Shown: positions 1 through 10,791 of the stretch, piece by piece
How positions within the stretch are numbered: position 1 is the stretch's first letter
Layout: every line of letters starts with the position of its first letter
IMG/VR virus record: IMGVR_UViG_2802429244_000006
Span: 1-10,791 of that record
Strand: one strand, 5' to 3'
DNA from: a virus
Lineage: Duplodnaviria; Heunggongvirae; Uroviricota; Caudoviricetes
Length of the DNA stretch: 10,791 bases
Program-made: the position numbers and the translations under genes
Notes under the pieces: generated by a model
Told to the model about the DNA's origin: nothing
Seen by the model: the letters and a program-made list of their open reading frames with translations, nothing else
The model's database searches: none

Positions 1-49
1 GATTTCCCACGCGAATTTTCATCGCTTTCACCATCAGCTCCATGCTCAT
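1..49 (-). CDS. Hypothetical protein, N-terminal 16 codons only (gene runs off the window start)
   Basis: ATG at 49-47 (minus) with GGAGG at 60-56, 6 nt upstream; ATG overlaps the TGA of the upstream gene (ATGA). Translation MSMELMVKAMKIRVGN... Confidence 0.4.
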   Translation of the reverse strand, partial: MSMELMVKAMKIRVGN

Positions 50-270
50 AACACACCTCCCAGGCGTTTAAACATTTTTCCGGACTGAAACACCGCCAGT
101 GGATAACTGATGGTGTAGTTACGCCCCAGTAATTCACACACAACTTTCTGGCTTTCGGTGCTGACCAGGCAAACCCGCAGAACGTGACCGTTGCTGGTGG
201 CGAACCACTGCCCCACACGGGGGCAACGGTTGTATCGGTGATACAGCGAATTCACAACGCGACGAATCAT
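46..270 (-). CDS. Hypothetical phage protein (74 aa)
   Basis: ORF-track ORF; ATG at 270-268 overlaps upstream TGA (ATGA); GGAGG 7 nt upstream (282-278). No recognisable domain. Confidence 0.5.
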   Translation of the reverse strand: MIRRVVNSLYHRYNRCPRVGQWFATSNGHVLRVCLVSTESQKVVCELLGRNYTISYPLAVFQSGKMFKRLGGVL

Positions 271-282
271 GGACGCACCTCC
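265..282. repeat. Copy 1 of an 18-nt gene-junction repeat (aatcatggacgcacctcc); 17/18 identical to 456..473
   Basis: Direct comparison of the two stretches; on the minus strand each copy carries GGAGG, the upstream stop and the downstream ATG. Confidence 0.8.
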
Positions 283-461
283 GCTGTTGTGATGTATTTA
301 ACCGGGCTGCCTTTCATTGCGATGGTTTCACACATCTCCGCGGCTTTACGTTCCGCTGTTTTCCTGGATTTATAGCGGCGGTGCCAGACAGATGTATCCG
401 TGCGAACTGATACATCGTTTCTGTATTCCGTTGTAGAAATAATAATTTCGTAACTAATCAT
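267..461 (-). CDS. Hypothetical phage protein (64 aa from the internal ATG; the ORF track extends to 476)
   Basis: ATG at 461-459 overlaps the TGA of the 493-aa ORF (ATGA) and has GGAGG 8 nt upstream (474-470). The upstream ATG at 476 has no SD. Translation MISYEIIISTTEYRNDV...AEVRP. Confidence 0.45.
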   Translation of the reverse strand: MISYEIIISTTEYRNDVSVRTDTSVWHRRYKSRKTAERKAAEMCETIAMKGSPVKYITTAEVRP

Positions 462-473
462 GGACGCGCCTCC
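456..473. repeat. Copy 2 of the 18-nt gene-junction repeat (aatcatggacgcgcctcc)
   Basis: 17/18 identity with 265..282; same relationship to stop/start codons on the minus strand. Confidence 0.8.
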
Positions 474-1939
474 CATTGATTACGGCGGAAAGCGGTGTGA
501 TTCAGGTGGGTTTCAGCTTCACGGAATGCTTCAATACAGCTCTCGTAGTACCGCATTGTGCGCAGACTTAACCCAAGCTGAAGCATCATCAGGCCATCAA
601 GGGTGATGTAATAACCACGCAGGGAGTCACCATAGATGTGATAAGTGCCCGGTATGAAATTGCGGGTAAAAAAATCGCGCGAGCAGTTCAGATACTCGAT
701 TTTGTCGACGATGTTCTGGTGCATGCGCTTGAAGTGGCAGGCAACATGCAGGGAGAAAATAACGGCCTTGCCGTTGACAACTTCAATTTTCAGGTATGGG
801 GAAGTTGGGACTGTAGCCATGATGGCAGCCTCCTTGAGCAGTGAAAAACTTCCACCACCGGAGCTGCGAAACTCATGGGTGGTGAACTGAACAGGGTTCG
901 CAGTACCGGCGCTCAAGGAAACCGGCGAGCCTTTCGGCTCCCCTGCCCAGCCCACCATAATTCTGGCATGCGCGAGCATGGACGATAAAAAAGACGCTGG
1001 CGCGTCGTATATCGCCTCGAGCAATTCCGGGCTGCGACCCCCGGCACCCGCTTTATAAGGTGCGGAGACAGTGTAACGTCCCGAAATTGCAGAATCAATA
1101 TTTAGGCTTGAAACATTCATATGCTTACTGGTATTTTTACTAACGCAAATGTTCTTGGATGTTACTGGCTTACTTCTCTGTGAAGTTGCCTTTACCAACG
1201 TTGAGCGAGCCGGGTCACTACCCGGCTTTTTTTCACCGCTGCCAACCAATAACCTGAAATAACCCCATTTTCGGGTGATACCAGCGAGTCCCTCGCGGTT
1301 CTGCTTCCTCCATAACCCGATAAAAGCAGCCATAAACGGTTCCACAGCAACAATTGCGCGACGTGACAACAATCCGTCCGGCGTCATGAACTCATGGGTG
1401 TCTGTAGGAATTTGATAGGCGTTCACCAGATTGCGGCATTTATCATCTGACAAACCGGTTTTTGCTTTCAGTTGGCGATATCCGGCATAGCCCTCACGAA
1501 TGGTACCCCTTTTGATTTGCTCAACTGTTTCGGCAACATGGCTGACTTTTTCTTCCACCTGAGTGATCCGTTTCTGCTGACGAACGGCTTCAAGAGCCAT
1601 CGCAGCAACCATTTCGATTTCGCTCATTGGCTTACGGATCTGTTCTTCCAGTTCGCGCCAGCGATCTACCAGGCGAGCAGTGAATTCAGGACAGAGCTGT
1701 GCGACGACAATGATGCTGTCGCGCTTACCTTGTTCTCCTTCAAACAGGTAATGCTCATATTGAACTTTAAAACCTAAGTTATTGATTTTCTCGGAAACAG
1801 CCATTGGCGGTTTCCGGATGATGTTTTTAGCAACCAGGCGTTCGATACTACGTTTAACATCTGAGTGCTGACTACCCACCAGCTCTGCGATCTCAACGCT
1901 GGTCATGGATGCTTTATCGTTAAAAATTGCGGTGTTCAC
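458..1939 (-). CDS. Rha-family phage regulatory protein (antirepressor-like), 493-aa composite ORF; possibly a fusion or read-through of two ancestral genes
   Basis: GTG start at 1939-1937 with AAGGAGG 5 nt upstream. N-terminus (MTSVEIAELVGSQHSDVKRSIERLV...) fits the Phage_pRha pattern. Residues about 230-370 are low-complexity (S/K/G/P-rich) and overlap an AT-rich stretch and a plus-strand terminator. A distinct C-terminal region starts near MATVPTSPYLKIEVVNGK. Confidence 0.65.
   Translation of the reverse strand: MNTAIFNDKASMTSVEIAELVGSQHSDVKRSIERLVAKNIIRKPPMAVSEKINNLGFKVQYEHYLFEGEQGKRDSIIVVAQLCPEFTARLVDRWRELEEQIRKPMSEIEMVAAMALEAVRQQKRITQVEEKVSHVAETVEQIKRGTIREGYAGYRQLKAKTGLSDDKCRNLVNAYQIPTDTHEFMTPDGLLSRRAIVAVEPFMAAFIGLWRKQNREGLAGITRKWGYFRLLVGSGEKKPGSDPARSTLVKATSQRSKPVTSKNICVSKNTSKHMNVSSLNIDSAISGRYTVSAPYKAGAGGRSPELLEAIYDAPASFLSSMLAHARIMVGWAGEPKGSPVSLSAGTANPVQFTTHEFRSSGGGSFSLLKEAAIMATVPTSPYLKIEVVNGKAVIFSLHVACHFKRMHQNIVDKIEYLNCSRDFFTRNFIPGTYHIYGDSLRGYYITLDGLMMLQLGLSLRTMRYYESCIEAFREAETHLNHTAFRRNQWEARP
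1208..1233 (+). terminator. Rho-independent terminator-like hairpin on the plus strand, inside the minus-strand Rha ORF
   Basis: Stem GCCGGGT (1209-1215), loop CACT, stem ACCCGGC (1220-1226), then TTTTTTT (1227-1233). Upstream flank is not A-rich, so it is directional for the plus strand. Confidence 0.5.
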
Positions 1940-1976
1940 TGATACCTCCTTACGGATAAATTATTGGGATCACGGT

Positions 1977-2723
1977 TCAGCACTTCTCAGTTACGCGCTT
2001 TTTCCAGAGCCATGCATCCCTATAAGCAGCCTCGATCCCATGGCATATCCGCATATCCTGAAACCAATGCTTCCGTTCCCATATCTGCCAAGATCGAGGT
2101 TTAATGCGATCGCTGATGCCTGTGATGGAGAACATAGCCAGTACGGGTACTTTCAGGCGTCTTCCTTTCTGGATATGCTTACGCCAGTCATTGCGAAGAT
2201 TTGCCCGCATGCTGAAATAAGCACCAACAGGAAATGCAACAAGAAATGCCGCTACCTGAACAAAAAGGAGTCGCCAGAAATTATGGGAATCATCTGGAGT
2301 GAGTTTGTTCTTCTGTTCAATACCAAACCGCGCCTTGTTACCTTCATCTGGACGGTTAGTGCTTTTGGACTTGGCGCCTGGCTCGGACACTGGCTTGCCA
2401 AAAATCGAGATAAGCGGAAAGAGTTCAATGCCGTCGCTGATGAATTGTTCCTGATCCTTGACGCCTTCCGCGAGGGTTGCCGAGACGGAAAACGGGATAT
2501 GCCACATATATCCAGAGACGATTTCAGAAGACTGCGCCCTCACCTGAGCAGCAGACAAGCACGAAGTTACCAACAAGCCGTAGATAACTTTTTTAACGCA
2601 CTGAAAGCTAGTGAGCTCTATGAAGACAGGCGGATTGTTCCGGTTATCAAAACTCCCGCAGAAATTCTTCCCAGCCTTAACACGCTGATTAAGTTTCTGA
2701 AGCATCGCTAAGCACTGTGACAT
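1977..2723 (-). CDS. Hypothetical protein (248 aa) with one predicted hydrophobic segment
   Basis: ATG at 2723-2721 with GGAGG 6 nt upstream (2734-2730), one nt after the stop of the upstream 75-aa ORF; 37 nt before the Rha gene RBS. A 268-aa ORF on the opposite strand (1905..2711) covers the same DNA, so the coding strand is not certain. Confidence 0.5.
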   Translation of the reverse strand: MSQCLAMLQKLNQRVKAGKNFCGSFDNRNNPPVFIELTSFQCVKKVIYGLLVTSCLSAAQVRAQSSEIVSGYMWHIPFSVSATLAEGVKDQEQFISDGIELFPLISIFGKPVSEPGAKSKSTNRPDEGNKARFGIEQKNKLTPDDSHNFWRLLFVQVAAFLVAFPVGAYFSMRANLRNDWRKHIQKGRRLKVPVLAMFSITGISDRIKPRSWQIWERKHWFQDMRICHGIEAAYRDAWLWKKRVTEKC

Positions 2724-2724
2724 A

Positions 2725-2952
2725 TCACACCTCCGATTGCTTACCTTGCCCCTCTTCTGTGTGCGCTAAATCAGGATGGATATACGGGATACTTGGATCC
2801 AGATGGCAGAGAATAGCTACGTCCTCTGGAACACCTCTCGTTTTCCACTTTCCAACACCTTGACTGCCACGAGGCTTTCCTTTCTTTGGGAATCTGCGGC
2901 CAATAGCGGCATTGGTTTTAAATTGAGTTTTTAATATTTCATAAAGGGTCAT
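2725..2952 (-). CDS. Hypothetical small basic protein (75 aa) in the cro-equivalent position
   Basis: First ORF leftward of the divergent region next to the CI-like gene. Weak SD. No obvious helix-turn-helix. Lys/Arg-rich centre (GRRFPKKGKPRGSQGVGKWKTRG). Confidence 0.3.
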   Translation of the reverse strand: MTLYEILKTQFKTNAAIGRRFPKKGKPRGSQGVGKWKTRGVPEDVAILCHLDPSIPYIHPDLAHTEEGQGKQSEV

Positions 2953-3063
2953 TCTTTAGTCTCACACCGGATACTCTGTTATCCAAGAATGTTAAACGCG
3001 AGAATCCAAAGTATCAAGAGATTCTGTTACTTTAGTATCAGCAGCCATGAAAGGAGAAGAAAA
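2953..3063. promoter_or_regulatory. Divergent operator/promoter region (OR-like) between the cro-position gene and the CI-like repressor
   Basis: 111-bp gap between divergent genes. Candidate leftward sigma-70 promoter on the minus strand: TTGATA (3017-3012), 17-nt spacer, TAACAT (2994-2989). GTATCA motifs at 3011-3016 and 3035-3040; the 10-mer aaagtatcaa (3008-3017) recurs at 3747-3756. Confidence 0.4.
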
Positions 3064-3720
3064 ATGAAATCTTTAGGTGAACGCCTCATCAACGCACGAC
3101 AAAAAGCTGGGTTAACGCAAGATGCGTTGGCTAAAAAAGCAGGGGTCACCAGAGTTGCAATCAGTAAAGCCGAGCAAGGCCTTACAAAAAGTTTCAACGG
3201 TGACACCCTTTTTAAAGTCGCAGCTGCACTGCAGTGTTCACCGCAGTGGCTTCAGAGCGGAGATGAAAAAGATAAGCATTGGGAAAATAATGTTAAGAGC
3301 TGCCCACAGAGAGACACAGCACACTCTTACCCTGTAATTAACTGGGTTCAGGCAGGATTATTCGCAACTGCTGGTGATGACTACAACATGTATGATCAGG
3401 ATAACTGGAGGCATTCTGTAAAATACGCTGGTGAGAGGGGGTTCTGGCTGGAAGTGCACGGAGACTCAATGACTTCGCCCGTAGGAATAACATTTCCTGA
3501 AGGAATGTCGATCCTTGTCAACCCAGATAAAGAAGTTTTTTCAGGGTGTTACGTCATCGCCAGAAAAAAATCCACCAATGAAGCAACATTCAAAAAATAT
3601 ATTTCTGAAATGGGAAAGGCGTTTCTAAAGCCCCTTAATCCACAATATCCAATCATAGAAATGGACAATGATTGCGAAATAGTAGGTGTTGTAGTTGATG
3701 CCAGGTGGGATATTTTCTGA
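3064..3720 (+). CDS. cI: Lambda-CI-like repressor (N-terminal XRE-type HTH, C-terminal LexA/S24-like autoproteolytic domain), 218 aa
   Basis: ATG 3064 with AGGAG 7 nt upstream. HTH: LINARQKAGLTQDALAKKAGVTRVAISKAEQG. C-terminal GDSM (catalytic Ser), FKK (Lys) and LNPQYP closely resemble the lambda CI C-terminal domain. Candidate Ala-Gly cleavage sites in VQAGLFATAGDD. The ORF-track start at 2989 lacks an RBS. Confidence 0.9.
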   Translation: MKSLGERLINARQKAGLTQDALAKKAGVTRVAISKAEQGLTKSFNGDTLFKVAAALQCSPQWLQSGDEKDKHWENNVKSCPQRDTAHSYPVINWVQAGLFATAGDDYNMYDQDNWRHSVKYAGERGFWLEVHGDSMTSPVGITFPEGMSILVNPDKEVFSGCYVIARKKSTNEATFKKYISEMGKAFLKPLNPQYPIIEMDNDCEIVGVVVDARWDIF

Positions 3721-3823
3721 CCAGACTCAAAACACAAAAAGAAACAAAAGTATCAAAAATCACTTGCCACACCTTGATACCTTAGTTACCATAAAACAAA
3801 GTTCGTAACTGAGGTATCATCTC
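3721..3823 (+). promoter_or_regulatory. OL/pL-like operator-promoter region with an inverted repeat GTATCAA-N17-TTGATAC (3750..3780)
   Basis: Inverted repeat arms at 3750-3756 and 3774-3780. Candidate promoter TTGCCA (3764-3769), 17-nt spacer, TACCAT (3787-3792). Shares the aaagtatcaa 10-mer with the OR-like region. Confidence 0.4.
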
Positions 3824-4240
3824 ATGATCAATAAAGCTACAACTCTTGACTGTCTTGAAGAACTGAAAAACCTCGGCAGTCTCATTACACTAATAGCCAA
3901 AGCAACGCCAGATGCTACGCTCTCTGGCGATATCGAGTCATGCGCAGGACTGGCATGGGATATGACAAATAGCATATCCAGAAAGCTATCGTCAGCAATG
4001 CTTTTACAGAACAAAAATTCTGCAATCAACAACCGTCTTCGCACCCAACGCGAAGCCTGCGGCTTAACAACCGCCGAACTCGCCAGGCTGCTCGATCTCG
4101 ATGAAGAAATTATCATCCAGTGGGAGAGCGGAGAGTGTGAACCAACCATCAGTATGCTTATCCCACTGGCAAATATTCTTGGCTGCGATCCGATGTGGCT
4201 GTTAACCGGTAAACCAACAGCAGGAGATACTTGCGCATGA
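3824..4240 (+). CDS. Helix-turn-helix (XRE-family) DNA-binding protein, 138 aa, HTH in the C-terminal half
   Basis: ATG 3824 with GAGG 9 nt upstream. HTH-like segment LRTQREACGLTTAELARLLDLDEEIIIQWESGECEPTISMLIPLANILG. First gene after the CI-like repressor on the same strand. Confidence 0.65.
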   Translation: MINKATTLDCLEELKNLGSLITLIAKATPDATLSGDIESCAGLAWDMTNSISRKLSSAMLLQNKNSAINNRLRTQREACGLTTAELARLLDLDEEIIIQWESGECEPTISMLIPLANILGCDPMWLLTGKPTAGDTCA

Positions 4241-4602
4241 AAAAGTTCAAAAACATAACCGTTCTCCATGTTGATTACTTTGATTATACAAACCCGGACC
4301 TTCTCCCGGAGGTTGTAAAAGCAATAGATGTTGCCGATATAGTGATTAGAGGAAAGAGAATTGTCAAAAACAGGCTCGCATGCACTTCAGGAGCAATGAC
4401 AGAAACAACCTCACAGCAAGATAATTACGAAGGCATTTGTCTGGAGCCTGATTCATTTGCGGTAAATGTTTATCATTTATTGCATGCAACACAGGTATTA
4501 CATATGTCCAGTAATCACGAAACGAAAATACTCGGCAGCGAAATTCTGAATTTTGCATGTGAGTATGCAAAAGCTGCTGCCGAAAAAGAATTAGCGCAAT
4601 AA
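4237..4602 (+). CDS. Hypothetical protein (121 aa), translationally coupled to the upstream HTH gene
   Basis: ATG 4237 overlaps the upstream TGA (ATGA); AGGAG 10 nt upstream. No recognisable domain. AT-rich codon usage. Confidence 0.55.
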   Translation: MKKFKNITVLHVDYFDYTNPDLLPEVVKAIDVADIVIRGKRIVKNRLACTSGAMTETTSQQDNYEGICLEPDSFAVNVYHLLHATQVLHMSSNHETKILGSEILNFACEYAKAAAEKELAQ

Positions 4603-4800
4603 CAACAAATATGCTCTGAACGTTTATTACGGTTTTATCGCCGGGGATTGTTACAACCTTTATTCACAGATGGAACTCAGTTATGACTTTCCTGAAAAAT
4701 AAGGCATCGTATAAAACTGCCTGCCTCATTGCACAACATGGAGATTCTTATCTTCATATAGCCAACCTGTATTTGCGCAAAGCATATGGGAGATAAATAA

Positions 4801-4989
4801 ATGAAAGAAAAACAACAGAACATAACACATAAAAAAGTAAGAGTGTTGCTAACCATTGAAAATGGTGAAGTAATTTACTCAAAACATCTGTTGGATAATG
4901 AATTCGTTGGCTGCATGGATACATTTCTGTGGATGGCAAAAAGAGCTGGCTACACGATTATTCCACCAGCAAAGGAGCAAACATTATGA
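4801..4989 (+). CDS. Hypothetical small protein (62 aa)
   Basis: ATG 4801 with GGGAG 8 nt upstream; follows a 198-bp AT-rich intergenic region; stop overlaps the next start (ATGA). Confidence 0.5.
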   Translation: MKEKQQNITHKKVRVLLTIENGEVIYSKHLLDNEFVGCMDTFLWMAKRAGYTIIPPAKEQTL

Positions 4990-5567
4990 ATAATTCAGAG
5001 TTCCGACCAGAAGTTACGCCACATGGCATAAAAATTGGCAATACAACCATTGATTATGTTGAGGCCGTACAGCGACTTAATAATGGTGAATACGATTATC
5101 CAAATTCACACGGTTTAAGAATCCTTCAGTGTCTTGCAGAAGCCGATGATGCCAGATTACTGGGAAGATTTTCAGTCGATATGAAAGTTACTCAATGGCG
5201 CTGGCTGTATGTGACAACGTTTATAAATGAAGAAGAAGGCAAGAACGGCACCATTGATATCCCTAACGATAACGGAACTACAGATCGCGCAGTTATTTAT
5301 AAGGGGAAGCATGGTTGCATGAGTATATACCCAGGACCACTTCGCATTGCCCTGCAGAACCATGTCGAATGGGGATTTATTGAAAAATATGGCGAAGCTG
5401 AAGGCATGGGGCGAGTTCTGTTTCTCTATCAAAAAATGCTCATCGCAGATCCTGATAATGGTTTCATTGTCTCTGCTATGGGGCGCGAAGGGCTTGAACT
5501 CCTTCTGGATGAAATGATTCATGATCTGAATACTCATGGTATGCCAGAAGCACCAGTGACACATTAA
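4986..5567 (+). CDS. Hypothetical protein (193 aa)
   Basis: ATG 4986 with AGGAG (4973-4977) 8 nt upstream; ATGA overlap with the preceding ORF. The ORF-track start at 4929 is an upstream extension without an RBS. No recognisable domain. Confidence 0.6.
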   Translation: MNNSEFRPEVTPHGIKIGNTTIDYVEAVQRLNNGEYDYPNSHGLRILQCLAEADDARLLGRFSVDMKVTQWRWLYVTTFINEEEGKNGTIDIPNDNGTTDRAVIYKGKHGCMSIYPGPLRIALQNHVEWGFIEKYGEAEGMGRVLFLYQKMLIADPDNGFIVSAMGREGLELLLDEMIHDLNTHGMPEAPVTH

Positions 5568-5612
5568 ATATTAAGAAGAATATAATTCTTTCGTTTTTTA
5601 CTAACCGTTTAT

Positions 5613-5720
5613 ATGAAAAGCAACCGTGAATTAAACAGAGTAAAACTAATTTTAATCCTTGCCACAGTGCTGATACTAACTGAAATCATTATTCTCTTTA
5701 TTGCGCTGTCAGTCGGTTAA
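5613..5720 (+). CDS. Putative small hydrophobic peptide (35 aa, one predicted transmembrane helix)
   Basis: Not in the ORF track (under 60 aa). ATG 5613 to TAA 5718-5720: MKSNRELNRVKLILILATVLILTEIIILFIALSVG. No SD, so low confidence. Confidence 0.25.
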   Translation: MKSNRELNRVKLILILATVLILTEIIILFIALSVG

Positions 5721-5743
5721 AAATATCGGGATACCACAGACCA

Positions 5744-5932
5744 ATGAGACTGTATTTCACAATAGTAATTTTACTGGCAATTATCGCATGTATTTACGGA
5801 TTACTTGTTCCGTTCCTTATATCCATGAAGGATACGATAGCAGTTATTTCTGGCTTTGCACTGGCGTTTCTGACCCCGCCCTGCATTTATGCCATTTACA
5901 AGGGGCTTTCTTTCACTAAGGATAAAAGATGA
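5744..5932 (+). CDS. Small membrane protein (62 aa, two predicted transmembrane helices)
   Basis: ORF-track ORF; hydrophobic stretches IVILLAIIACIYGLLVPFLI and AVISGFALAFLTPPCIYAIY; stop overlaps the ATG of the SPFH gene (ATGA). Weak or absent SD; alternative in-frame ATG at 5825. Confidence 0.45.
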   Translation: MRLYFTIVILLAIIACIYGLLVPFLISMKDTIAVISGFALAFLTPPCIYAIYKGLSFTKDKR

Positions 5933-6756
5933 AAAAAATTATTTTTGCTTTAGCCATTGTTCTGCCGACTATTGGCCTTGTCGGTTGCGATCGCGTTGAA
6001 CCAGGTAATGTTGGCATCAAGGTAAATAAACTGGGCGACGACAAAGGCGTCGGTGAGGTGGTCGGTGTTGGTCGCTACTGGACTGGCTGGAATACTGAAG
6101 TTTATATCTTCCCCACCTTCAAGCAAATGAAGACCTACGATGAACCGTTCAGTTTCCAGATGAGTGACGGTACAACCATCGGCTATCACATTGGCGTGGC
6201 CTACAAAGTTGATCCATCCAAAGTTACCACGGTGTTTCAGACCTACCGCAAAGGCGTGGATGACATTACAGACACCGACCTGCGCCAGAAGATCGCCGAC
6301 GCACTCAACCGACTGGCCAGCAAAATGACCACTGACAAATTTATCGACGGCGGCAAGTCTGAGCTGCTGGATGAAGCTCTTAAAGACATTCAGGCAGAGA
6401 TGACACCTATCGGTATTCAGGTAATGAGCCTCTCATATGTGGGTAAGCCGGAGTACCCGCCAACCGTTATCGACAGCATTAATGCCAAAGTCACGGCGAA
6501 CCAGAAAACCCTACAACGCGAGCAGGAAGTTAAACAGCGCGAAGCGGAAGCCAACATGTTGCGCGCGGAAGCTGCCGGACAGGCTGATGCGATTCGCACA
6601 AAAGCCCAGGCTGAAGCCGATGCTATTCGTTTACGCGGTGAAGCTCTGCGCCAGAACCCCGGTGTTATGGAGCTGGAAGCCATCAATAAATGGAACGGCA
6701 CACTGCCGCAATACATGACCAGCGGTGCCAATACACCATTTATCCAGGTTAAATAA
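5929..6756 (+). CDS. SPFH/band-7 (prohibitin/HflK/C-like) domain lipoprotein, 275 aa
   Basis: ATG 5929 with AAGGA 6 nt upstream. Signal peptide with lipobox LVGC (Cys20). Central SPFH-like region and C-terminal Ala/Glu-rich coiled coil (QREAEANMLRAEAAGQADAIRTKAQAEADAIRLRGEA) typical of the family. Confidence 0.8.
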   Translation: MKKIIFALAIVLPTIGLVGCDRVEPGNVGIKVNKLGDDKGVGEVVGVGRYWTGWNTEVYIFPTFKQMKTYDEPFSFQMSDGTTIGYHIGVAYKVDPSKVTTVFQTYRKGVDDITDTDLRQKIADALNRLASKMTTDKFIDGGKSELLDEALKDIQAEMTPIGIQVMSLSYVGKPEYPPTVIDSINAKVTANQKTLQREQEVKQREAEANMLRAEAAGQADAIRTKAQAEADAIRLRGEALRQNPGVMELEAINKWNGTLPQYMTSGANTPFIQVK

Positions 6757-6796
6757 CTTATATGCCCGGCAGGCCGCCGGGCTAAGGGAAAAGCAG

Positions 6797-7156
6797 ATGA
6801 ACACCCATAATGCCCAACCGCAAATAATGAACTATGACCCGAATCTGACGTCATGCGGACGCATGGCAAAACAAACCGTTCGATTAACTTTCGGGTTATG
6901 GGAATACCGCGAAACATTCGAAGTTACTGTCGGCGGCAATCTGACCGGGCTGGATGTTATCAGTTGCGCTATTGAAAGCCTGTACGCAACGCTGCTTTAT
7001 GAAGAAGTCGAGGATGAGCGCGATATCATAGCCACCATTAATATCGGCGGACTGGAATGCAAGGATGAAAACCTGTCCGGAGAGCTCTGGCTTGCCGGGA
7101 TGCTTATCTCAGCAGAAATTATCAGTATTGAACCCGCAACAAACATACGGCTCTGA
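6797..7156 (+). CDS. Hypothetical protein (119 aa)
   Basis: ATG 6797 with AAGGGA 7 nt upstream; in frame with the longer ORF-track ORF 6725..7156, whose start would overlap the SPFH gene. No recognisable domain. Confidence 0.5.
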   Translation: MNTHNAQPQIMNYDPNLTSCGRMAKQTVRLTFGLWEYRETFEVTVGGNLTGLDVISCAIESLYATLLYEEVEDERDIIATINIGGLECKDENLSGELWLAGMLISAEIISIEPATNIRL

Positions 7157-7187
7157 AGTTCTCACTATTCAGAGAGCAGGAGAAAAA

Positions 7188-7430
7188 ATGTTCGCTTTGA
7201 TTAATCAGGGACAGCTGTATACCGACAGTGCCGGTTACCCGGTAAAAATTATTCGCTGCATAAATAACACTGTGTTGTACAGAAGAATGGATGGGCGAAC
7301 ACAGTCGGTAAAAATAAACGATTTTAATGAACTGTTTGAACGACTCGATCACCAGGAATACCGACAAATTCTGGCAGAAACAGAACAGGAAACTCATCTG
7401 AAAAAATTACGAGCCATGAAAAGGAAGTAA
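7188..7430 (+). CDS. Hypothetical small phage protein (80 aa)
   Basis: ATG 7188 with AGGAG 5 nt upstream; in frame within ORF-track ORF 7065..7430. Translation MFALINQGQLYTDSAGYPVKIIRCINNTVLYRRMDGRTQ... Confidence 0.55.
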   Translation: MFALINQGQLYTDSAGYPVKIIRCINNTVLYRRMDGRTQSVKINDFNELFERLDHQEYRQILAETEQETHLKKLRAMKRK

Positions 7431-7433
7431 AGA

Positions 7434-7580
7434 ATGAATAAAGCGTTTGAACTATGGGTACGCCAGCGTTACGGCAATCGCTATGACCTGACGCGAGATG
7501 TTGACGGTTTCTACTGTCGTGAAATTGTGAAACGAATGTTTGAAGTGTGGTGCCACTGCCGTGGGCTGAATGTTGTATGA
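7434..7580 (+). CDS. Hypothetical small protein (48 aa, Cys-containing)
   Basis: Not in the ORF track. ATG 7434 with AAGGAAG 6 nt upstream. Translation MNKAFELWVRQRYGNRYDLTRDVDGFYCREIVKRMFEVWCHCRGLNVV. Confidence 0.4.
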   Translation: MNKAFELWVRQRYGNRYDLTRDVDGFYCREIVKRMFEVWCHCRGLNVV

Positions 7581-7588
7581 GGTGAACT

Positions 7589-7798
7589 GTGGGGCTGGAT
7601 TGCGTACCTATATCAACCTACTGCCGCAACGCAGGAGAAACGGTTGATGCCGTTAACAAACGGATACAAAGAGGAATATGGAAAGAAGGGGTACATGTAT
7701 TAAAAGTCGACGGAGTTAAAGAACGTTGGGTCGACTTAATGGAGATTACAAAATGGGCAAGAAAGAACAAGGATCACTATCTCTCCCTAGAGGAGTAA
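7589..7798 (+). CDS. xis: Excisionase-like DNA-binding protein (69 aa)
   Basis: GTG start 7589 with GAGGTG just upstream; sits immediately 5' of the integrase and overlaps it by 46 nt, as xis does in lambdoid phages. Motif KEGVHVLKVDGVKERWVDL is consistent with small winged-helix excisionase-like proteins. Confidence 0.55.
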   Translation: MGLDCVPISTYCRNAGETVDAVNKRIQRGIWKEGVHVLKVDGVKERWVDLMEITKWARKNKDHYLSLEE

Positions 7799-8925
7799 CT
7801 ATTCGCCAGCATAAAACTGGTAGCACTCTGGTTATCACTTTTACATATAAAGGGGTTCTGTGTCGGGAGCCCCTCTCCAGAATGGAAGTAAACGCGCGCG
7901 GTGTGAAGTACGCTGAGCGTCTGCTGGGAGAAATAAAAAATCAGATTATCGATGGTACCTTCGAATATGCAAAATACTTCCCCAACTCCCAAAAGCTGGA
8001 GTTGTTCGGGGGAGTGAAAAAAAACAAAAATATAAAATCTTACCTGGATGAATACCTGATTATCTGCCAGAACCGTAACCTGTCACCATCGACAATTAGA
8101 GGTTATGAAAAATGCCTGTCGGCGCTGTCAGCATTGCATAAATTTCATGTATCAGAACTGACACCTGCAGTACTAAAAAACTGGATCGCCAACAGAAAAA
8201 CAAAACTGAAAACTATCCGCAATAATCTTTCATTCCTGCGCAGCGCCATAGATGAAGCGGTGACCGATGGTTTGTTAACAATAAATCCTGTCACGCTAGT
8301 CAGCGCCAGCCGGTATCACGTATTGGACAACACACCAGGCAGTGATGATTACGAGGTCGATCCTTTTACACCAGCGGAGACGGCAGCAATCTATGACGCC
8401 TGTCATTACCCGGAATGGCGAAATCTGTTTCGCTTTGCCTTTAATACAGGACTGCGCAGCTCAGAATTGTGCGCGTTGCGCTGGACGGATATAGACTTTA
8501 TCGGCAACACCGCGCATGTTCAGACTGCAAGCGTAGTCGGGGTAATCAAAAGCACCAAAACAAAAGCCGGCACCCGCAAAGTGCAACTGAACAGCGAAGC
8601 GCTGGCGGCTCTTCAGGCACAAAAGCCCTACACGGCGCTAAAGAGCGACTTCATATTCAGCGATCCGAAAACTCGCGCTCCTTGGGCAAACGCAGATGCG
8701 ATCCGAAAAAAAGCCTGGGTACCAACCCTTAAAAAAGCTGGTGTACGCTATCGCAATCCGTACCAGACACGCCACACGTTCGCCACTCGGCACATTAGCC
8801 AGGGCGTTAACCTGTTCTGGCTTGCTGGTCAGATGGGGCATAAAGGACCGGAAATGCTGTTCAGACATTACGGCTCTTACCTTGCAGAATACGATGGAAA
8901 AACGGCGATTTCTGCAACCCCGTAA
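7753..8925 (+). CDS. int: Lambda-type tyrosine integrase (site-specific recombinase), 390 aa from ATG 7753
   Basis: ATG 7753 with GGAG 8 nt upstream (ORF track begins at TTG 7726). N-terminal arm-binding-like region resembling lambda Int; C-terminal catalytic motifs (LRSSELCALRW..., RHTFATRHISQG..., GHKGPEMLFRHYGSY) with the conserved Arg/His/Arg/Tyr pattern. Confidence 0.9.
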   Translation: MGKKEQGSLSLPRGVTIRQHKTGSTLVITFTYKGVLCREPLSRMEVNARGVKYAERLLGEIKNQIIDGTFEYAKYFPNSQKLELFGGVKKNKNIKSYLDEYLIICQNRNLSPSTIRGYEKCLSALSALHKFHVSELTPAVLKNWIANRKTKLKTIRNNLSFLRSAIDEAVTDGLLTINPVTLVSASRYHVLDNTPGSDDYEVDPFTPAETAAIYDACHYPEWRNLFRFAFNTGLRSSELCALRWTDIDFIGNTAHVQTASVVGVIKSTKTKAGTRKVQLNSEALAALQAQKPYTALKSDFIFSDPKTRAPWANADAIRKKAWVPTLKKAGVRYRNPYQTRHTFATRHISQGVNLFWLAGQMGHKGPEMLFRHYGSYLAEYDGKTAISATP

Positions 8926-9057
8926 CGGCAAAATATTTCAAAATGTTGTACAGAATCAGGACGTTATCGGGACAACAATATGTACGTAAAATGCACATAA
9001 TTCATTGTTTGAAAAAATAAATCGTTCATATTCAATAAATTGGATTAATCACGATCA

Positions 9058-9084
9058 CGGGTTCAACTCCCGCCAGCTCCACCA
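9058..9084 (+). other. ssrA: 27-nt copy of the 3' end of tmRNA (ssrA): T-arm 3' side plus acceptor 3' strand ending CCA; interpreted as the att core at a prophage/island junction
   Basis: CGGGTTCAACTCCCGCCAGCTCCACCA matches the E. coli tmRNA 3' terminus as I recall it (...GCGGGTTCAACTCCCGCCAGCTCCACCA). Sequence immediately 5' (cacgatca) does not match ssrA, so this is a fragment, not a complete gene. Confidence 0.75.
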
Positions 9085-9118
9085 CTTTTTAGTTGTTTGA
9101 AGTACAATGAAGTCTACT

Positions 9119-9152
9119 AAGCCCGCACAGCACAAGCTCTGCGGGCTTTTTT
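9119..9152 (+). terminator. Rho-independent terminator
   Basis: GC-rich stem AAGCCCGCA / TGCGGGCTT followed by a run of six T (9147-9152); 35 nt downstream of the ssrA-like CCA end. Confidence 0.7.
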
Positions 9153-9249
9153 ACGTCTATTGTCGTCCAGTGAGAATTGCTGAGAACTATCACTTATGGC
9201 ACCCTGAATGGGACCCACTAAGAAGGGTCCAAAAACCGAGGGTCCCAAA

Positions 9250-10479
9250 ATGGCAAAAATCGCTAAGAAGCTCACTGACACTGAAATCAAAAGCACCAAG
9301 CCAGCCGACAAAGAAATCAACTTGTTTGACGGAGATGGTTTGATACTACGAATCGCTCCCCTCTCGAAAGGAGGAAAGAAGAATTGGTATTTCAGGTATG
9401 CAGTGCCAGTCAGTAAAAAAAGAACCAAAATGAGCCTTGGGACATATCCTCACCTTACACTGGCAAGAGCCAGAGCCTTACGAGATGAATACCTTTCCTT
9501 GCTTGCTAATGGCATTGATCCCCAAGTTCATAACAACGATAAAGCTAATGCCTTAAAGAATGCTACTGAACACACTCTCCAAGCCGTGGCAAGGAAATGG
9601 TTGGATGAGAAGGTAAAGACCTCAGGTATCTCACAAGACCATGCAGCAGACATCTGGCGCAGCTTAGAGAGAAATGTCTTTCCTGGCCTGGGTAATGTCC
9701 CTATCAATGAGATCCGACCTAAGCTCTTAAAACAACACCTTGATCCTATTGAGCAACGAGGCGTATTGGAAACTCTACGCCGCATCATTTCACGTCTGAA
9801 TGAAATCTTCCGGTGGGCAGCCACTGAAGAACTTATTGAGTTCAATCCGGCTGACAACCTTGGTCAAAGATTCAGTAAACCAAAAAAGCAAAATATGCCT
9901 GCCCTTCCCCCAAGCGAATTGCCAAGGTTTATGGAATCTTTGACGAATGCGTCAATCCGGCTGGAAACACGTATGCTAATTGAATGGCAATTGTTGACAT
10001 GGGTTCGTCCGGGTGAAGCCGTTCGCGCAAGGTGGTCTGATATTGATACAACCAACAACATTTGGAACATTCCTGCTGATTTTATGAAAATGAAAAAGCC
10101 TCACAAAGTTCCTTTGAGTAAAGAAGCTTTGCACATCCTTGAATTAATGAAATCAATAAGTGGGCATAGAGAATGGGTTTTCCCCAGCATTAAAGCGCCT
10201 CTTAATCATATGCATGAACAAACAGCCAACGCAGCTATTATCCGAATGGGGTTTGGAGGCGAACTTGTAGCTCACGGTATGCGTTCGATTGCAAGAACAG
10301 CGGCAGAGGCGTCTGGTAAGTTCAGAGCTGAAGTTCTTGAGGCAGCACTCGCCCACTCTAAAAAAGATGAAATTATCGCAGCATACAATCGTGCAGAATA
10401 TCTGATAGAACGACAGAGTTTGATGCAATGGTGGAGTGATTACGTTCAAACTCAAAGAGCTAAAGCTATCGCTGCTTGA
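9250..10479 (+). CDS. int: P4-type (IntA-like) tyrosine integrase, 409 aa from ATG 9250
   Basis: ATG 9250 with GAGGG 7 nt upstream. N-terminus MAKIAKKLTDTEIKSTKPADKEINLFDGDGLILRI fits the P4-integrase arm-binding N-terminal pattern. Conserved blocks DIWRSLER, GVLETLRR, KKQNMP, ARWSDID, HGMRSIART, EAALAH, AYNRAEYL, MQWW. The ORF-track start at 9208 is an upstream extension. Confidence 0.9.
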   Translation: MAKIAKKLTDTEIKSTKPADKEINLFDGDGLILRIAPLSKGGKKNWYFRYAVPVSKKRTKMSLGTYPHLTLARARALRDEYLSLLANGIDPQVHNNDKANALKNATEHTLQAVARKWLDEKVKTSGISQDHAADIWRSLERNVFPGLGNVPINEIRPKLLKQHLDPIEQRGVLETLRRIISRLNEIFRWAATEELIEFNPADNLGQRFSKPKKQNMPALPPSELPRFMESLTNASIRLETRMLIEWQLLTWVRPGEAVRARWSDIDTTNNIWNIPADFMKMKKPHKVPLSKEALHILELMKSISGHREWVFPSIKAPLNHMHEQTANAAIIRMGFGGELVAHGMRSIARTAAEASGKFRAEVLEAALAHSKKDEIIAAYNRAEYLIERQSLMQWWSDYVQTQRAKAIAA

Positions 10480-10791
10480 CTGATACAGGGGATTAGCAAG
10501 AAGGATAGGGATAGCCTGGAAAGCCCATATACTGACGAATGCCCCTTAGCTAAAACATTCTCATCGGATTGAAAGCGCACATGTACATAAAACCAGTATA
10601 AAAACATAAGGTTATATAACTAAACTTTGATACGTATGCTTCCATATGTTTTTAGTGTTTGATATGGTGAAAAAAAGATACTGATGTTTTTTTATGCTTT
10701 CATTGCTTGTTTCCTTAGTGGGCTACCATATGGATTTCTTTGAAAAAACTAATGCTGACAAAAATTCAATAGGTTTTACCTATCAAGATTA

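Follow-up and report, generated by a model that had tools for sequence, protein, structure and literature searches.

A frameshifted rha gene reads through a spacer with a conserved terminator-like hairpin and into isrK and C4 RNA genes

The window analyzed here is a stretch of 10,791 nt, positions 1 to 10,791 of the IMG/VR virus record IMGVR_UViG_2802429244_000006 (Caudoviricetes), and it has on its minus strand an uninterrupted open reading frame (ORF) of 493 amino acids that starts with GTG (458..1939). The original prediction, made from the sequence alone, described this ORF as a composite with a Rha-type N-terminus, a distinct C-terminal region, and an S/K/G/P-rich, partly AT-rich center within which the opposite strand forms a hairpin followed by a T7 tail. 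The parts of the ORF are as described. Residues 12–99 match Pfam Phage_pRha (PF09669; 57.2 bits vs. a cut-off of 29.9), and residues 374–493 are a separate unit with its own ATG (position 820), an upstream Shine-Dalgarno sequence (AAGGAGG), and a match to PHROG 995. Between them, residues 205–273 are 13% K, 12% S, and 10% G, residues 274–373 are 16% S, 14% A, and 11% G, and the spacer DNA at 1104–1206 has a G+C content of 38.8% versus 45.3% for the whole window. Residues 289–381 match a second family, Pfam Phage_ASH (PF10554; 63.7 bits vs. a cut-off of 26).

The window belongs to a lambdoid prophage of Escherichia coli that resembles phiP27, and it is the early regulatory region of that prophage. 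Matches to the region, at 80–97% identity, occur in prophages of 379 complete E. coli genomes, and phiP27 is the best phage match to the window (96.9% identity over 67%). The normal order on the minus strand is rha (encoding 235 amino acids), a 112-nt spacer, an RNA control module of the P1-immI/Gifsy-1 type (the isrK promoter, isrK, C4, and the target sites of C4), and a gene for a Rha-like regulator of 120 amino acids. RefSeq homologues are annotated with a 708-nt gene for a "Rha family transcriptional regulator" and a 663-nt gene for an "ash family protein" that are separate and ∼110 nt apart, so that alignment does reveal the gene boundary that had been suspected near 1100..1260.

A single base accounts for the difference between the window and its homologues. 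Pairwise alignments with three of them (L001, L002, and L003) each have one gap, at the same place in rha, near window position 1326. The adjacent run at 1322–1325 is T5 on the gene strand (A5 on the plus strand) in the 54 comparable homologous loci used for this comparison, and T4 (A4) only in the window and in an identical Logan contig (L004, from SRR3988073). Reinsertion of one T yields a Rha of 235 amino acids that is identical to the Rha of L001 at 234 of 235 positions and ends in GLFQVIGWQR at a TGA stop codon (1235..1233), whose position is given by the ends of RefSeq coding sequences and by the alignment. The intact Rha of L001 matches PHROG 63 ("anti-repressor Ant," 5.6e-48). In the window, the full-length frame seen in homologues is interrupted by the 1-nt deletion at codon 205, and the native C-terminus, FYRVMEEAEPRGTRWYHPKMGLFQVIGWQR, is encoded but out of frame. 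The Pfam match, the RefSeq homologues, and the repaired frame identify 1233..1939 (minus strand) as rha, here a frameshifted pseudogene.

The 493-amino-acid ORF is a frameshift fusion over a spacer and known RNA genes. A base was lost from the A5/T5 run in this lineage, the shifted frame misses the TGA and crosses the spacer, and by chance it is in phase with the long frame of the "ash family protein," giving 493 codons. Residues 1–204 are native Rha, residues 205–234 are the 3' end of rha read out of frame, residues 235–273 are translated spacer, residues 274–373 are the first 100 codons of the "ash" ORF, and residues 374–493 are the unit that begins at the ATG at 820. The low-complexity center is thus out-of-frame rha followed by spacer and translated RNA genes, and its non-coding origin is ordinary. 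The proposal that ancestral genes had been fused by loss of a stop codon holds insofar as separate genes are joined, but no stop codon was lost; the 1-nt deletion lies 90 nt upstream of an intact TGA. Nor are the joined genes two in number, because the frame spans rha, the spacer, the isrK promoter, isrK, C4, and the 120-amino-acid gene. Programmed frameshifting or slippage at the A7 run is ruled out, as the DNA difference sits 90 nt upstream, at 1322–1325.

The fusion is a lineage-specific pseudogene and not a conserved fusion. Because all 54 comparable loci carry the extra base, we regard the fused ORF as an accident of this lineage. The exact fused protein is on record from a single contig sequence present in two samples. 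Its cluster at 90% identity has 100 members with a 220-amino-acid ash family protein as representative, and all 14 other cluster members listed are 220 amino acids or shorter.

The RNA genes over which the shifted frame runs belong to known families, and the defining features that were tested are present in both. The isrK small RNA (sRNA; 1063..987, minus strand) matches Rfam RF01394 (56.4 bits vs. a gathering score of 50, E = 3.4e-10) and has its own terminator (stem 1006..993, U-run 992..987). Its promoter, read from the sequence as TTGATT, a 17-nt spacer, and TACACT (1070..1098, minus strand), ends 6 nt ahead of isrK position 1 (+1 at 1063). The C4 antisense RNA (962..875, minus strand) is a full-length match to Rfam RF01695 (84.4 bits vs. 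a gathering score of 45, E = 6.5e-16) and a homologue of P1 c4 and of Salmonella STnc1160. We compared 80 related IMG/VR loci (L005–L084), in most of which the promoter, isrK, and C4 are directly upstream of the 120-amino-acid gene; in a few, isrK is truncated, C4 is undetected, or extra DNA lies between the elements. The isrK promoter is nearly invariant and stays attached to isrK whatever DNA precedes it. The 120-amino-acid gene (458..820, minus strand) occupies the position of Gifsy-1 AnrP, and its product matches PHROG 995 ("transcriptional regulator," 8.5e-57) and scores 28.9 bits against Phage_pRha, just under the cut-off of 29.9.

Pairing between C4 and its target sites is maintained across loci. 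The C4 loop UCCUUGAGC (919..911) pairs perfectly over 9 nt with target b', GCUCAAGGA (839..831), which overlaps the Shine-Dalgarno sequence AAGGAGG of the 120-amino-acid gene (835..829), the two together occupying 829..839 on the minus strand. A second C4 segment, CUGCGA (903..898), has its complement UCGCAG at 869..864 and once more in the isrK loop (1037..1032). The C4 loop, its target at 839..831, and a similar sequence within isrK, GCUCGAGG (1022..1015), change together across loci, as do the members of a second triplet (isrK loop 1037..1032, C4 903..898, and target 869..864), such that there are at least five matched variants of the isrK, C4, and target sites. Compensatory changes also occur in the C4 stem (AGCC/GGCU, CAUC/GAUG, CACC/GGUG, and CAAC/GUUG). 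Modules that are otherwise alike fall into at least five such specificity types, which is reminiscent of P1/P7 c4 heteroimmunity.

Several other observations concern the module. In some prophages, the whole module is present in tandem copies with a 656-nt period, each copy of a different specificity type (three copies in L018, at 1422, 2078, and 2734, and in L082 and L083, at 2734, 3390, and 4046; two copies each in L059–L063 and L084). The motif GGGAGG-N7-ATGA occurs where the stop codon of the 120-amino-acid gene overlaps the ATG of the next gene (window 458–476, minus strand; L018, L059, and L082), an arrangement that suggests translational coupling. In loci with tandem modules, this motif gives the next "ash" frame a good ribosome-binding site and ATG, and the "ash" ATG of the window (1120) is without a Shine-Dalgarno sequence. 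A palindrome, AACATAAC-N5-GTTATGTT, is located just upstream of the isrK -35 element, ∼40 nt upstream of the promoter, in L065, L068, L073, L080, and L084, the loci in which a divergent gene pair precedes isrK, and may be an operator.

The Phage_ASH match coincides with the DNA of the isrK promoter, isrK, and C4, raising the question of whether this stretch (821..1120, minus strand) is a protein domain. We compared variation by codon position in 44 ungapped module sequences. Across the 279 nt that begin with the isrK promoter and run up to the ATG of the 120-amino-acid gene, variable sites at codon positions 1, 2, and 3 number 49, 45, and 48 of 93 each, with mean diversities of 0.145, 0.127, and 0.120. 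In the 120-amino-acid gene, the corresponding numbers are 32, 31, and 73 of 120 each, with mean diversities of 0.046, 0.047, and 0.155. Because an excess at the third codon position is absent from the DNA of the Ash N-terminal part in these sequences, unlike in the adjoining gene, the Ash-matched stretch evolves like non-coding (RNA) sequence, and the last 120 codons behave as a real gene. The "Ash domain" here may be largely a translated RNA gene. A purely non-coding reading nevertheless fails to explain why, in 59 of 59 distinct modules, among them those that have 3-nt indels, the "ash" frame stays open and in register with the ATG downstream. One possible explanation is that the region is translated to provide coupling, as demonstrated for orf45 of Gifsy-1 (Hershko-Shalev et al. 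2016, PMC4825925).

The opposite-strand hairpin lies in DNA that is truly intergenic, the 112-nt spacer (1121..1232) that separates rha from the annotated "ash" ORF. It consists of GAGCCGGGT-CACT-ACCCGGCTT on the plus strand, with arms at 1207–1215 and 1220–1228 that form nine pairs, six of them G-C, a CACT loop at 1216–1219, and a T7 tail at 1227–1233. The 36-nt stretch that holds it (1200–1235) folds at -16.8 kcal/mol (z = -3.9 vs. shuffles). A G+C-rich stem, short loop, and adjoining U-tract give it the shape of an intrinsic terminator on the plus strand. Its tail shares one base with the native rha stop codon, the last T being the A of the TGA. The hairpin and tail had been placed at 1208..1233 and within a gene, but they sit in intergenic DNA directly after the native end of rha.

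The hairpin is conserved. It is kept in 48 of the 80 IMG/VR loci, wherever a 3' end of rha like that of the window directly adjoins the isrK promoter, and its A/T run is 6 long in 3 loci, 7 in 35, and 8 in 10. It is also present in 28 metagenome stretches, and 206 of 5426 complete E. coli genomes carry it (∼4%), including strains of O103, O111, and O145 and some of O157. The stem is intact in all but one locus (L012), where a single G-to-A change yields a U.G pair on the plus strand and a C.A mismatch on the minus strand. A sequence just ahead of the stem, GUUGAG(C/U)GA, is common to all types of spacer. Because no U-tract, nor anything U-rich, follows the stem on the sense strand, the orientation is that of a plus-strand terminator, and we conclude that the hairpin is a conserved terminator-shaped element in intergenic DNA.

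Only three types of spacer were found in everything searched: type A, that of the window, and types B and C, which are 73–75% and 85–87% identical to it, respectively. Type A occurs in E. coli MEI7BO1-21 (NZ_CM149560.1), which matches the window at 100% identity over 1104–1245, and type B occurs in E. coli O103:H2 12009. Within the hairpin, the types differ only in the loop and its closing pair, and the A/T run beside it is 6–8 long. All three types also have a promoter-like site on the plus strand ∼70 nt upstream of the hairpin. In the window, it comprises TTGAAA (1108–1113), an 18-nt spacer, and TATTTT (1132–1137), agrees with the consensus at 9 of 12 positions, and has the TG of an extended -10 element before the second hexamer. 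The elements TTGAAA and TGnTATnTT are kept in types A, B, and C, while the intervening 18 nt diverge. Downstream of this site is a conserved single-stranded block, TGTTCTTGGAT (1150..1160, plus strand), that is a possible seed. Its core, GTTCTTGGAT (1151–1160), is kept in almost every variant of all types (single-base variants are L007 and L119), the first T of the block varies in a few type C sequences, and the flanking sequence is poorly conserved. A second hairpin, GGC..CTTC-loop-GAAG..GCC (1167..1190), could be used on either strand, and its sequence differs by spacer type with a stem still possible in each (CTTC/GAAG, CTGC/GCAG, and GGAGCYG/CRGCTCC).

These features can be combined into a candidate RNA. 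Transcription from the promoter-like site would start near 1143 and end at the hairpin, giving an RNA of ∼90 nt (1143..1233, plus strand) whose promoter would stand back to back with that of isrK in a layout resembling those of OOP and sar. The region folds at -31.4 kcal/mol on the plus strand (z = -3.6) versus -27.6 kcal/mol on the minus strand (z = -3.3), and the consensus folds are -18.5 and -14.0 kcal/mol, respectively. Any long early transcript would contain, in its rha-isrK spacer, a complement of the predicted RNA, which could pair with it there. The RNA would also be built like a trans-acting sRNA, its 5' block being conserved and followed by a stem-loop and a U-tailed terminator, and action in trans is the other possibility. 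Taken as a whole, the explanation that we judge likely is a frameshift fusion together with a conserved plus-strand terminator that possibly ends a small RNA. That the hairpin ends an RNA transcribed from the conserved extended -10 promoter is the likeliest reading of it and has, by our estimate, a little under an even chance. Slightly more tentative is the proposal that the spacer encodes a third and undescribed sRNA of the antirepressor module, divergent from isrK and with the 5' block UGUUCUUGGAU. A 20-codon ORF within the spacer (1121..1183; MLTGIFTNANVLGCYWLTSL) had been pointed out as well and is present in the window. As a gene, it is rejected; its ATG is ATA in type B spacers, and it begins upstream of the predicted start of the RNA.

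A number of results weigh against the candidate RNA. The promoter-like site was present where it had been reported, but one such site in 3 kb compares with a mean of 3.5 in shuffled sequences. By count it is no better than chance, so it is its conservation that argues for it. The predicted RNA covers spacer alone, touching the rha stop codon (1233–1235) and ending 23 nt short of the "ash" ATG (1120); it overlaps no coding region or ribosome-binding site, and no cis-antisense target is evident. The window has no complement of the conserved block elsewhere, hence no trans target there. RNAalifold reports two compensatory pairs, and three spacer types give little power to detect covariation. Natural variants that distinguish G.U from A.C pairs are ambiguous, with two fitting the plus strand and two the minus strand, and those of the second hairpin conflict with one another (two type B variants fit minus and one type A variant fits plus).

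The distribution of the element counts against it too. Two pattern scans did not find the hairpin outside the rha-isrK junction. In viral contigs, a pattern that combined the conserved block with a terminator arm, at a gap range that excluded types A and B, returned only type C spacers and two chance matches in coding sequence, and a scan of metagenomes anchored on the terminator and the end of rha returned the same three spacer types. The hairpin is also absent after rha in eight more distant loci of other genera, in which the next gene abuts or overlaps the stop codon, and an antisense terminator as a general feature following rha is rejected. No Rfam family matches 1100–1260, even at E ≤ 1, and our literature search found no description of the hairpin sequences or of antisense RNAs linked to rha.

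An independent parallel in phiP27 bears on how the hairpin should be read. In that phage, rha (L14) is followed by a different gene, L15 ant. Right after the rha stop codon and on the same strand as in the window is a hairpin, GGCCGG-9-CCGGCC with a T-rich tail (TTTCTTATTT), that differs from the hairpin of the window. That hairpins without relation to each other occupy this place, facing the same way, favors a function as terminators over their being relics. In the first codons of L15, ∼35 nt upstream of the phiP27 hairpin, is a promoter-like site, TTGATT-18-TGnTATTGT (2162–2191 of L093, the phiP27 sequence), read by eye, with agreement at 8 of 12 positions that is below the threshold of the scan. 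The stretch 2162–2256 of L093 is predicted from its sequence to yield an RNA of ∼58 nt across the Shine-Dalgarno sequence and GTG start of L15, in a sar-like layout.

Among the alternatives, the one that survives best is that the hairpin is an insulating plus-strand terminator with no dedicated sRNA and that the promoter-like site is a chance match. It would stop stray antisense transcription coming from the side of isrK and the replication genes before it reaches rha, cro, and the repressor region. Its orientation and conserved U-tract suit a terminator of any purpose, promoter-like sites are not above chance here, no cis target is overlapped, and phiP27 likewise has an antisense-oriented terminator right after rha. 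However, the -35, the -10, and the TGn are kept in three spacer types across diverging sequence, and the scan found no other promoter-like site on either strand within 1–3000 to supply the transcripts that an insulator would stop. We consider insulation without an sRNA unlikely, at perhaps one chance in a few.

Lower still stands the suggestion that the hairpins act on the sense strand, as an intercistronic element of the mRNA after rha such as a 3' stabilizer, an RNase processing site, or an antitermination-type structure, with the A-run being incidental. The minus strand also folds well, the second hairpin in two type B variants has a G.U pair on the minus strand where the plus strand has A.C, and a boxA-like C(G/A)CUCAAC, read by eye from the alignment, may follow the first hairpin. 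On the other hand, a sense-strand element has no U-tract after its stem and leaves the conserved run of 6–8 As 5' of the stem without a known role, whereas this run suits a terminator on the opposite strand. In L012, the first hairpin is broken on the minus strand and still pairs on the plus strand, and the consensus fold is better on the plus strand. These points render a role in the sense transcript improbable.

The remaining two alternatives concern the fusion itself. If the missing base were an error of sequencing or assembly, rha would be intact in the real genome. The difference does fall in a homopolymer, and one contig sequence alone carries A4. But the run is merely 4–5 bases long, the contig comes from two samples, and the protein is recorded in both NCBI and Logan sources, so an error appears very improbable. 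That selection maintains the ORF as a real protein in which a flexible linker joins Rha to Ash is effectively refuted despite its unbroken frame and the identical sequence in two samples, since the extra base and separate genes occur in 54 of 54 comparable loci, the "linker" includes 30 rha codons read out of frame together with a terminator, a promoter, and two RNA genes, the Ash part has no coding signature, and the fused form is known from the one contig sequence.

Comparison with characterized systems places the module and the candidate RNA differently. For the module, the characterized relative is isrK-orf45-anrP of Gifsy-1 in Salmonella, in which isrK is followed by STnc1160, a processed RNA (Hershko-Shalev et al. 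2016, PMC4825925). As in Gifsy-1, the window has a dedicated promoter, a 77-nt isrK that has a leaky terminator and is complementary to the downstream RNA, a conserved structured RNA under a short frame, and an antirepressor-type gene. In Gifsy-1, a promoter at the position of the isrK promoter was demonstrated experimentally, the overlying frame is conserved in nucleotide but not in amino acid sequence, and a frame of this type is fused to the downstream gene in S. dysenteriae (PMC4825925). The two differ in that the upstream neighbor is rha in the window and antQ in Gifsy-1 and in that the overlying frame is here in phase with the 120-amino-acid Rha-like gene, with both annotated as one 220-amino-acid "ash family protein." The portion of the Gifsy-1 account drawn on here makes no mention of a plus-strand terminator or promoter in the spacer (PMC4825925).

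The resemblance to P1/P7 c4 (RF01695) is close in the placement of C4 upstream of the gene that it controls, on the same transcript, in the complementarity of its loop to the ribosome-binding site of that gene, and in specificity types that arise by matched changes in RNA and targets. In P1/P7 immI, c4, like the CI RNA of P4 (whose targets are seqA/seqC), exerts antisense control over a downstream gene on the same transcript, mechanisms that are also discussed in PMC4825925. The module differs in that the controlled gene is a small Rha-like regulator and not icd/ant and in that isrK contains an extra upstream copy of target-like sequences.

Lambda OOP overlaps ∼55 nt of the 3' coding end of cII, and its terminator, as read from the lambda sequence, is a G+C-rich hairpin with a U6 tail. 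OOP is a 77-nt RNA with a regulatory role (PMC12197685), antisense to early rightward genes and encoded just past a regulatory gene with its own sigma-70 promoter. The predicted spacer RNA resembles it in position, orientation, size, and type of terminator. Unlike OOP, it reaches only the rha stop codon and shares no recognizable sequence similarity. In P22, the antirepressor control region encodes sar, a small antisense RNA (PMC12197685) with a promoter near the start of the downstream gene and an end just after the upstream gene, a layout that the prediction for L14-L15 of phiP27 fits well. Unlike sar, the RNA predicted in the window would start (∼1143) at a point that, in the direction of the minus strand, is upstream of the "ash" ATG (1120) and its ribosome-binding region, so that no translation start is covered. 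The antisense RNA proposed in the manner of sar or OOP is a candidate that has a conserved, plus-oriented terminator and a promoter-like site upstream and has no overlap with a coding 3' end or ribosome-binding site. Because it overlaps neither, the predicted RNA may work like OOP or sar but cannot be filed with them.

Two further observations concern the window outside this region. Next to rha, ORFs of 268 amino acids (1905..2711, plus strand) and 248 amino acids (1977..2723, minus strand) overlap on opposite strands, with no Pfam or PHROG match to either. In the phiP27 record, it is the plus-strand ORF that is annotated (L13), and gene calls on the Logan contig pick the minus-strand ORF; which of the pair is real bears on whether rha belongs to the cro operon. 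At 9039–9152 (plus strand), there is a weak match to a tmRNA fragment (14.4 bits) and a match to the IsrM model at its two ends only (56.6 bits), with a 3' part that is a terminator-like hairpin with a U-run. These matches are just upstream of a 423-amino-acid ORF (9208..10479, plus strand) that, from the position of the integrase calls in phiP27 and the Logan contig, is probably the integrase. From its sequence, 9039–9152 looks like a prophage attachment site at ssrA.

Annotation of such loci calls for caution. A deletion of one base was sufficient to produce a plausible-looking "two-domain" protein of 493 amino acids, and the normal call of a 220-amino-acid "ash family protein" conceals two known regulatory RNAs beneath a Pfam domain match. 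Stx-phage-like prophages of this kind carry a P1/Gifsy-type RNA switch, isrK plus C4, before a small Rha-like regulator. If the spacer does encode the predicted RNA, the lysis-lysogeny circuitry of these prophages, a group common in pathogenic E. coli, would gain a further small RNA.

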